DNA of 64,000 nucleotides from Candidatus Methylomirabilia bacterium. Lineage in GTDB: Bacteria; Methylomirabilota; Methylomirabilia; Rokubacteriales; CSP1-6. The notes under the pieces are model-generated. The model did no database searches. It was not told where the DNA came from and saw only the letters and a program-made list of their open reading frames with translations. Shown here in pieces: positions 36,447-37,703 of the stretch. Each line of letters opens with the position of its first letter. Position 1 is the first letter of the stretch. The DNA lies in the NCBI GenBank assembly GCA_041490825.1, contig JBGPTW010000011.1, positions 2,903 through 66,902 of the forward strand, given 5' to 3'. The position numbers and the translations under genes are program-made.

Positions 36447-37703
36447 TCAGCTCCGGGCGGGCGTGGTCGCGAGCACCGGCGTCGCCGGCGTCCCCGCTGT
36501 CGCGGGCTCCTGGCGCTCGCCGTGACCGTTCGATCCTGTCTCGCAGGCGCCGCCGGCGCCCTGGCGGTGGATCGACAGATCTGTGATCGTCGGGGACTTG
36601 CCGCAGAGCGGGCAGTTCGGATCGCGGCGCAGCTTCACTTCGCGGAACCGCATGCCGAGGGCGTCGTAGGTCAGCAGACGTCCGATCAACGGGTCACCGA
36701 TGCCGAGCACCAGCTTCACGGTTTCCGTCGCCTGCACCATCCCGACCACTCCTGGGAGCACGCCCAGGACGCCAGCCTCGCTTCAGCTGGGGACGAGCCC
36801 CGGCGGCGGTGGCGTGGGATAGAGGCAGCGATAGCAGGGACCCTGGTTCGGCGCAAAGACCGTCGCCATGCCTTCGAACTGGAAGATCGAGCCGTGGACG
36901 TTCGTCTTGCCCGCCAGGTAGCACGCGTCGTTGACGAGGTAGCGCGTCTCGAAGTTGTCCGAGCCGTCGACGATGAGATCGTAGTCACGGATGACGTCCA
37001 TCACGTTGTCGACGTCGATGCGCATCGGCAGCGGAATCACCGTCACGTCCGGGTTCAGCGCGCGAATCGTCCGCGCGCCCGACTCCACCTTCGGTTTGCC
37101 GACGTCGGCCGTCGTGTGGAGGACCTGTCGCTGCAGATTCGTGATGTCGACGACGTCGCCGTCCATGAGCCCCAGCGTGCCGACACCGGCCGCGGCGAGA
37201 TAGAGGGCCGTCGGCGAGCCGAGCCCCCCGGCGCCGATCAGCAAGACCTTCGAGCGCAGGAGCTTGCGCTGGCCCTTGTCGCCGACTTGCGGCAGCAGGA
37301 AGTGCCGGCTGTAGCGCTGGATCTGGTCCGGCGTCATCGGGATCTCGCGAACGACCGGGAGCCCCGACTGCAGCCACTTCTGGTAACCGCCCCGGAGGTT
37401 GATGACGTTCTGGTAGCCGAGCTCCTTCAACTGCGTGGCCGCCAGCACTGACCGCAAGCCCGTCTGGCAGTAGAGAACGATGGTCGTCGCAGGATCGCTG
37501 ACGGCCGTGCCGATCCTGAACTCGAGGAATCCGCGACTGATGTTGGACGCGGCCTCGATGTGGCCGTCCCGGTACTCGTCCGGGTCGCGGACATCGATCA
37601 CGGTGACCGGCTCGCCCGACTGGAGGCGCCGCTGCAGATCCGCCGGGCCTTCCTCGGGCACGACCTGGCGAGCTTCCGCCAGCATTTCCTTCAACGTTTT
37701 CAT
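36447..37703 (-). CDS. moeB: rhodanese-MoeB/ThiF fusion, predicted selenoprotein (in-frame TGA at 36785-36783)
   Basis: Rhodanese [50 protein letters not shown], CPLC; both halves are in one frame; 418 aa with Sec307. Confidence 0.85.
36750..36769 (-). promoter_or_regulatory. bacterial SECIS-like hairpin of moeB
   Basis: TCCTGGG-CGTGCT-CCCAGGA, a perfect 7-bp stem starting 13 nt after TGA, with G at loop position 2. Confidence 0.6.

Follow-up and report, generated by a model that had tools for sequence, protein, structure and literature searches.

A rhodanese–MoeB fusion gene of Rokubacteria with a conserved in-frame UGA and a predicted selenocysteine at the crossover-loop position

The 64,000-nt stretch of DNA analysed here (the window, to which all coordinates refer unless another locus is named) comes from a Candidatus Methylomirabilia bacterium (contig JBGPTW010000011.1) and carries a gene for a rhodanese–MoeB fusion protein (37703..36447, minus strand, 418 codons) whose codon 307 is UGA. 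We consider it probable, at roughly 0.85, that the gene is expressed as one protein of 418 residues in which UGA307 is decoded as selenocysteine (Sec) through a SelB-binding selenocysteine insertion sequence (SECIS) lying 13 nt downstream. A first-pass annotation had already proposed Sec307 in a rhodanese-fused adenylyltransferase of the MoeB/ThiF type, and the proposal is now supported by the conservation of the TGA among orthologues, by purifying selection on the sequence that follows it and by a freeze of synonymous codon choice within the predicted SECIS. The gene belongs to the known, predicted Sec-MoeB family and does not define a new class; it stands out by the reversed order of its domains and by the near-fixation of the Sec form in Rokubacteria.

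One frame interrupted by a conserved UGA

Single-frame translation of 37703..36447 shows that the TGA at 36785..36783 is the sole internal stop of a frame that opens with an ATG at 37703 and closes with a terminal TGA at 36449..36447 (minus strand). The list of open reading frames (ORFs) cuts the gene into an ORF of 385 aa (36783..37940) and another of 104 aa (36447..36761), both on the minus strand, which the first-pass annotation had rightly taken for a single frame joined by one TGA. The 385-aa ORF begins at an in-frame ATG further upstream (37940); we take the ATG at 37703 (MKTLKE...) to be the true start instead, because all homologues begin with MKTLK at this point and because a promoter-like site lies just upstream. 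Of the 50 coding ORFs of the window, 36 use TGA as their normal terminator, the rhodanese–MoeB gene itself among them, so the genetic code has not been reassigned genome-wide.

The protein comprises an N-terminal rhodanese domain (residues 20–112, 37368..37646, minus strand; PF00581, 75 bits) followed by a ThiF/MoeB adenylation domain (residues 131–365, 36609..37313, minus strand; PF00899, 282.6 bits). The active-site cysteine of the rhodanese domain, Cys79, is encoded by a TGC codon (37469..37467, minus strand) within YCQTGLRS, and the alignment of homologues shows residues C79, Q80, G82, L83, R84 and S85 to be invariant, as is the GAGGLGS nucleotide loop of the adenylation domain. Two zinc-binding CxxC pairs flank the UGA on the minus strand. 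The first, C290/C293 (36825..36836), is invariant and aligns with C172/C175 of MoeB; the second, C364/C367 (36603..36614), lies 3' of the UGA, where the first-pass annotation had located it, and aligns with C244/C247 of MoeB. This second pair is found in every full-length homologue and, when the strict pattern C[PA]LCG is applied, in 70 of 78 TGA sequences.

The protein aligns with the solved structures of E. coli MoeB (1jw9, E = 4e-57), ThiF (1zud) and Uba4 (6yub). When scored with Cys put in place of Sec, the protein reaches 529.9 bits with the NCBIfam model NF006444 (cut-off 449), its residues 4–375 covering positions 3–375 of the 387 in the profile. It falls short of the equivalog thresholds for MoeZ, E. 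coli MoeB and ThiF, with 399.9 bits for the MoeZ model NF005902 (cut-off 647), 223.8 bits for the E. coli-type MoeB model TIGR02355 (cut-off 376.55) and 244.9 bits for TIGR02356 (cut-off 275.25). NF006444 (PRK08762) describes the molybdopterin-synthase adenylyltransferase MoeB with an N-terminal rhodanese domain, and the match is full-length with the same domain order; the difference is that the crossover-loop residue is encoded by UGA in the window gene, which is why annotators cut the protein at 306 aa. We know of no biochemical study of this N-terminal rhodanese–MoeB architecture, the family name of NF006444 having been given by homology.

We compared the window gene with 160 other orthologous loci, drawn from 80 species-representative genomes, nearly all of them metagenome-assembled genomes (MAGs) of Candidatus Rokuibacteriota/Methylomirabilota, and from 80 soil metagenome contigs. 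The alternation of TGA with Cys codons, which the first-pass annotation had suggested looking for, is indeed present: codon 307 is TGA in 145 of the 160 loci and TGC or TGT in the other 15. TGA predominates in the species representatives (77/80, the remaining three having TGC) as well as in the soil contigs (68/80, against 11 with TGC and one with TGT). At the protein level, the closest relatives (86–91% identity) form dozens of database clusters that are nearly all exactly 306 residues long and cut at the same point, one of these truncated entries being named 'MoeB' by NCBI; the prediction that annotation pipelines would miscall the gene is thereby borne out. Full-length relatives (75–83% identity) have 381–446 residues, mostly 394–407, and carry PSC[AGS]EAGVLG at the position of Sec307, in keeping with the PSC-x-E-x-GVLG motif anticipated for the site; the full-length Cys forms measure 394–405 aa.

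The part of the gene that follows the TGA shows none of the decay that would be expected of a relic. The frame stays open for 88–111 codons in all TGA sequences except one, whose contig ends first, and the ratio of nonsynonymous to synonymous differences (pN/pS) among TGA sequences is 0.19 after the TGA compared to 0.15 upstream, with pS close to 0.42 (~0.42). The 3' part must therefore be translated and constrained. A neighbour-joining tree was built from the 159 sequences that were sufficiently complete for alignment. Of the 15 Cys forms it contains 13, twelve of which form a single clade while the other stands apart. The switch from Sec to Cys coincides with the loss of the exact hairpin described below and with an altered residue at +1. 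Note that one MAG, SMAG_U8953, contains both a TGA copy (L028, DATEMW010000108.1) and a TGC copy (L068, DATEMW010000197.1), which are either true paralogues or the product of a mixed bin.

The hairpin downstream of the UGA

The predicted SECIS is a hairpin at 36750..36769 (minus strand), which starts 13 nt after the TGA and whose position, 7-bp stem and 6-nt loop are exactly those noticed at first pass. The stem, UCCUGGG/CCCAGGA, amounts to 6–7 bp, the full seven pairs running from U36769–A36750 to G36763–C36756, and it closes a loop of 6 nt, CGUGCU (36762..36757), that has a G at its second position followed by a U and is located 20 nt from the UGA. Bacterial SECIS elements (bSECIS) have been defined by a loop of 3–9 nt, an upper stem of 4–16 bp, a G in the first two loop positions, a distance of 16–37 nt from UGA to loop and a minimum free energy of at most -7.5 kcal/mol (PMC13188914). 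The window hairpin falls within all of these published limits, for loop, stem, G, spacing and energy alike. Moreover, every TGA-form sequence (146/146) gives one and the same hairpin shape, with energies from -10.2 to -11.9 kcal/mol, and the RNAalifold consensus recovers it; a further helix of 4 bp may exist below it, but is disrupted in 5 of the 40 sequences analysed with the same program.

The codons that make up the hairpin are frozen. Among 140 distinct TGA-form sequences, we followed the 80 codons that specify an invariant residue and have four- or six-fold degeneracy. At the third position these codons have an entropy of 1.07 bits on average, and a single codon is used only at five of the 80, which are consecutive, namely +5..+9 (GTC CTG GGC GTG CTC). 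Codon +10 is either CCA or CCG, an alternation that merely swaps a U–A pair for U·G, and the frozen codons taken together with +10 coincide exactly with the stem and loop of the hairpin. The flanking codons vary freely, as GCN and GGN before the block and as GGN and V/I codons after it. For the same peptide the Cys forms draw on different codons: GTG replaces GTC in 14 of the 15, CTG replaces CTC at +9 in all 15, and CCC or CCG is used for proline. The hairpin is far beyond chance by its conservation, not by its thermodynamics.

A nearly identical element is present in marine Sec-MoeB genes. Sec-MoeB was predicted in the selenoproteome of the Sargasso Sea, with 11 sequences (Zhang, Fomenko & Gladyshev 2005, PMC1088965), and again in the Global Ocean Sampling (GOS) survey, with 19 (Zhang & Gladyshev 2008, PMC2398784), and is listed in reviews of 2022 and 2026. 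The first-pass annotation was correct in stating that such proteins had been predicted in metagenomic surveys, since the Sargasso supplement shows the same Sec site. To our knowledge, the MoeB selenoproteins predicted in 2005 have never been studied biochemically. The Sargasso protein has its Sec at the identical crossover-loop position, shares 61% identity with the window protein over the adenylation core, has a rhodanese domain fused to it and is encoded with nearly the same SECIS, GUCCUGGGCGUGCUCCCGGG, at the same distance. Indeed, in the supplement sequence the Sec site is followed by GTCCTGGGCGTGCTCCCGGG, which gives an almost identical hairpin in marine DNA of low GC content. The two differ in that the rhodanese domain is C-terminal in the Sargasso protein (AACY01471790), as in MoeZ and Uba4, and N-terminal in the window protein; in the +1 residue, Ala in the former and Ser in the latter; and in their source, low-GC marine plankton versus high-GC Rokubacteria of soil and groundwater. 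A search of the whole window against Rfam produced no match at gathering thresholds, and a match with E = 8 around the site is meaningless; Rfam seems to be without a model that matches the rhodanese–MoeB SECIS.

Catalytic site, selenium machinery and competing explanations

The counterparts of Sec307 in these alignments are E. coli MoeB Cys187, ThiF Cys184 and Cys202 of Chaetomium thermophilum Uba4, the last being equivalent to Cys225 of the yeast protein. In Uba4, the C-terminus of adenylated Urm1 is transferred to Cys202 in thioester linkage. Attack by the persulfide of the rhodanese domain converts this thioester into an acyl-disulfide, for which the resolving cysteine has yet to be identified, and both catalytic cysteines, Cys202 and that of the rhodanese domain, are required (PMC11662940). 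The window protein resembles Uba4/MOCS3, the eukaryotic enzymes (E1) that activate Urm1 and MOCS2A, in combining adenylation and rhodanese domains within one chain, the rhodanese Cys of which carries the persulfide in Uba4/MOCS3, and in having Sec307 at the place of the thioester-forming cysteine. It differs from them in being bacterial, in having the reverse domain order (the rhodanese domain of Uba4/MOCS3 is C-terminal) and in using Sec where they use Cys. E. coli MoeB (1JW9) and ThiF (1ZUD) share its fold, its nucleotide loop and both of its zinc CxxC pairs, but lack a rhodanese domain and have Cys, not Sec; MoeZ/MoeBR (NF005902) is distinguished by the opposite domain order and, as indicated above, by a score below its cut-off. 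ThiF Cys184 reportedly forms an acyl-disulfide with ThiS (work attributed to Xi and colleagues, 2001).

By homology with Uba4/MOCS3, ThiF and MoeB, the reaction might proceed as follows. The adenylation domain, a dimer with a zinc site built from the two CxxC pairs, would bind a ubiquitin-fold sulfur carrier (similar to MoaD, ThiS or CysO) and adenylate its C-terminal glycine. Sec307, on the flexible crossover loop, would attack the acyl-adenylate to form a selenoester, the counterpart of the thioester on Uba4 Cys202, and this selenoester would in turn be attacked by a persulfide on rhodanese Cys79, giving an acyl-disulfide. The latter would be cleaved, plausibly by the Sec307 selenolate, with a transient Se–S bond to Cys79, and the carrier thiocarboxylate thus released would give its sulfur to molybdopterin or to another thio-cofactor. 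Selenium would be expected to speed the nucleophilic and leaving-group steps and to ease re-reduction of the enzyme. It is by such analogies that we infer the S/Se relay that the first-pass annotation had envisaged. A bolder view, to which we give a small share of our confidence, is that Sec has long been fixed (pS ~0.4) in what is perhaps the main rhodanese-fused E1 of nearly all Rokubacteria, so that the activation of a central thio-cofactor pathway, for the molybdenum cofactor or another, would in this abundant soil lineage be selenium-dependent by way of a selenoester/Se–S relay, or else, in view of the selD genes that adjoin it in two genomes, that the enzyme would take part in selenium trafficking, for example through a protein selenocarboxylate or delivery to SelD.

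Sec decoding in this organism and its lineage has indirect support, part of which comes from a second TGA gene on the same contig, described below. The literature describes a Methylomirabilota MAG with 63 predicted selenoprotein genes (review PMC13188914) and the occurrence of Sec-type hydrogenases in Methylomirabilota (PMC13582414). Within our data set, we searched the window and all loci with ARAGORN and by tblastn with probes modelled on SelA, SelB and SelD of E. coli. The 64-kb window contains none of selABCD, while SelD is present in the related genomes of L046, L075 and L174/L175. In two of the 160 loci a Cys-form selD (GGGCGCK) adjoins the rhodanese–MoeB gene, with two different arrangements: in L046, selD (8903..9952 of that locus, plus strand) is located on the same strand directly upstream of a TGA form, with a gap of 48 nt, and in L075, selD (11343..12347, minus strand) is convergent and lies downstream of a TGC form. 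The identity of the SelD next to the rhodanese–MoeB gene was verified with NCBIfam NF002098 (518 bits, cut-off 299). Chance may account for the adjacency, or it may point to a functional connection with selenium metabolism. Beside the SelD homologue of L174/L175 (8956..9563, minus strand), two ORFs on one strand adjoin each other, a glutaredoxin-like one of 79 aa and another of 123 aa; the pair may be a further gene split by a Sec-UGA.

Several results weigh against a Sec307 inserted by this hairpin and acting in catalysis. SelA, SelB and tRNA-Sec were not found in the window or in the ~1.3 Mb of related loci, and no selA or selB was seen in the contexts of the close SelD homologues. The 66–70-nt region around the hairpin shows no excess of folding energy over dinucleotide shuffles (z = +0.44 and +0.26), a measure that is uninformative here because the region is coding DNA with 68% GC, and RNAalifold detected no double compensatory change in the stem, as follows from the fact that the stem never varies. 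Hairpins also form at the same place in the Cys-form orthologues, and the notion that the Cys forms are devoid of a hairpin had to be rejected: they fold too, albeit with a 5-nt loop, in a shifted register and with energies from -5.9 to -11.1 kcal/mol, because GVLGVLPG written in GC-rich codons is intrinsically palindromic. The hairpin that the first-pass annotation pointed to does agree with the bSECIS definition and its codons are frozen, but its presence alone is weak evidence, and in the sequences compared it is the synonymous freeze alone that discriminates Sec from Cys forms. The built-in palindrome may for its part be the reason why Sec could evolve at site 307. As regards function, Cys187 of E. 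coli MoeB is said to have been found dispensable by Leimkuhler and co-workers in 2001, so the crossover-loop residue would not be universally important for catalysis in the family. Finally, the window contains no small ORF ending in GG that could encode a MoaD/ThiS-like carrier, and clustering of the neighbours of 81 loci left the gene neighbourhood uninformative on the pathway.

The explanation that fares best beside the proposed one concedes a genuine selenoprotein and questions its role, which would be selenium trafficking, to or from SelD via the rhodanese domain or as a selenocarboxylate, instead of carrier thiocarboxylation. The selD genes directly upstream of the gene in L046 and convergent with it in L075 speak in its favor, but such adjacency is confined to two loci out of 160, one of which has the Cys form, the conserved neighbours in the window and in most genomes are divergent dTDP-rhamnose genes, and the MoeB model NF006444 recognises the protein with a score over its cut-off; we therefore regard this role as decidedly unlikely.

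Less likely still is a recoding of UGA as something other than Sec, either as Cys by a SelB-dependent tRNA(ReC) or allo-tRNA, or as Trp or Gly by near-cognate read-through, which would yield an ordinary Cys-type enzyme or a variant one. The conservation of the UGA, the frame and the hairpin would fit any recoding that depends on a SECIS and SelB, and selC* (tRNA-ReC) in environmental genomes is mentioned in the hydrogenase paper (PMC13582414). Against this, SelD occurs in the lineage and adjoins the gene in two genomes, a switch from Sec to Cys accompanied by loss of the hairpin and by a change at +1 would serve no purpose were UGA already read as Cys, a nucleophilic catalytic Cys position such as this one is the typical place for Sec, and lists of selenoproteins have included the family since 2005.

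We give practically no credence to a pseudogene or an assembly error, with only a 306-residue fragment or nothing being made: gene callers do split the gene and databases do hold 306-aa products, but the same TGA recurs in 145 of 160 independent assemblies, the open frame that follows it is under purifying selection, and the fragment would lose two zinc ligands along with about a quarter of the adenylation domain. A two-piece split enzyme, terminated at the UGA and restarted at the GTG of the 104-aa ORF with the frozen nucleotides as re-initiation signal, is just as hard to sustain, for although this GTG comes 8 codons past the UGA and some orthologues have an AGGAG-like string, AGGAG lacks conservation, CCAGGC standing in its place in about half of the sequences, what is frozen is the hairpin and not a spacer followed by a start codon, the proteins of the Cys forms run through without a break, and the catalytic loop residue would be deleted.

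Neighbouring features, a second candidate and implications

The promoter-like site upstream of the rhodanese–MoeB gene, TTGACT-16-TAATAT (37711..37738, minus strand), is sigma-70-like (one site found versus 0.1 expected), and its -10 box ends 7 nt 5' of the ATG at 37703, with no Shine–Dalgarno sequence. Many Sec-form orthologues have a similar TTGAAC...GGTAATAT directly 5' of the ATG. In the 60 nt upstream of the genes of L001–L160, a -10-like box, GGTAATAT or GAGTATAGC, ends 6–9 nt before the ATG of Sec-form genes, without a Shine–Dalgarno sequence, whereas the Cys-form clade of L075, L081, L082 and L131 has the Shine–Dalgarno sequence GGGGAGG instead. The short distance between box and ATG and the missing ribosome-binding site suggest that the mRNAs of Sec forms are leaderless, and the same is possible for the window transcript.

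The conserved neighbours revealed by the clustering are the divergent dTDP-rhamnose genes, the genes downstream being variable. The only neighbour seen that relates to the molybdenum cofactor (Moco) is a MoaB/Mog-like gene (25809..26351, plus strand), which in the window is separated from the MoeB gene by ~10 kb and in 13 related loci follows it at a distance of ~3 kb. A YeeE/YedE/TsuA-like membrane protein and an adjoining FAD pyridine-nucleotide-disulfide oxidoreductase are encoded 3–6 kb downstream of the MoeB gene (32306..33433 and 30237..31673, respectively, minus strand). The former matches models of thiosulfate transporters and of the YedE selenium transporter, in each case below the cut-off; the two proteins could supply or recycle sulfur or selenium.

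A scan of the window disclosed only one further in-frame stop with coding signal on both sides. It interrupts a gene for a secreted AhpC/TSA peroxiredoxin of the BCP type (49225..49779, plus strand), where the TGA (49441..49443) occupies the position of the peroxidatic Cys in FIGAFTPT-TGA-TREV. The TGA is conserved in close orthologues, which are annotated as pieces of 68 aa and 107–108 aa. The long hairpin that follows (49456..49494) has a z of -3.05 and displays compensatory changes between orthologues, for example from U–A to C–G. The peroxiredoxin is a second candidate selenoprotein of the window. Just upstream of it, in the window and in the orthologous contigs, lies a gene for a TlpA-like thioredoxin (48579..49196).

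The existence of a Sec-MoeB will in itself not surprise a selenoprotein specialist. The analysis corrects a systematic annotation error, which has left hundreds of 306-residue 'MoeB' fragments in the databases and the peroxiredoxin as pieces of 68 and 107 residues, and it describes an unusually well-defined SECIS, shared with marine MoeZ-type genes, that should be useful for training predictors of SECIS elements and selenoproteins on high-GC genomes. It also bears on the crossover-loop Cys of E1 enzymes of the MoeB/ThiF/Uba4 type, a debated residue that is regarded as dispensable in MoeB and as thioester-forming in Uba4: a natural Sec under strong selection in rhodanese-fused enzymes, if correctly predicted, argues that the residue is catalytic there and makes site 307 a tractable probe for it. 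The Sec form is the rule across this lineage of soil and groundwater bacteria (77 of 80 species representatives), and their sulfur-carrier-activating enzyme may therefore depend on the supply of selenium.

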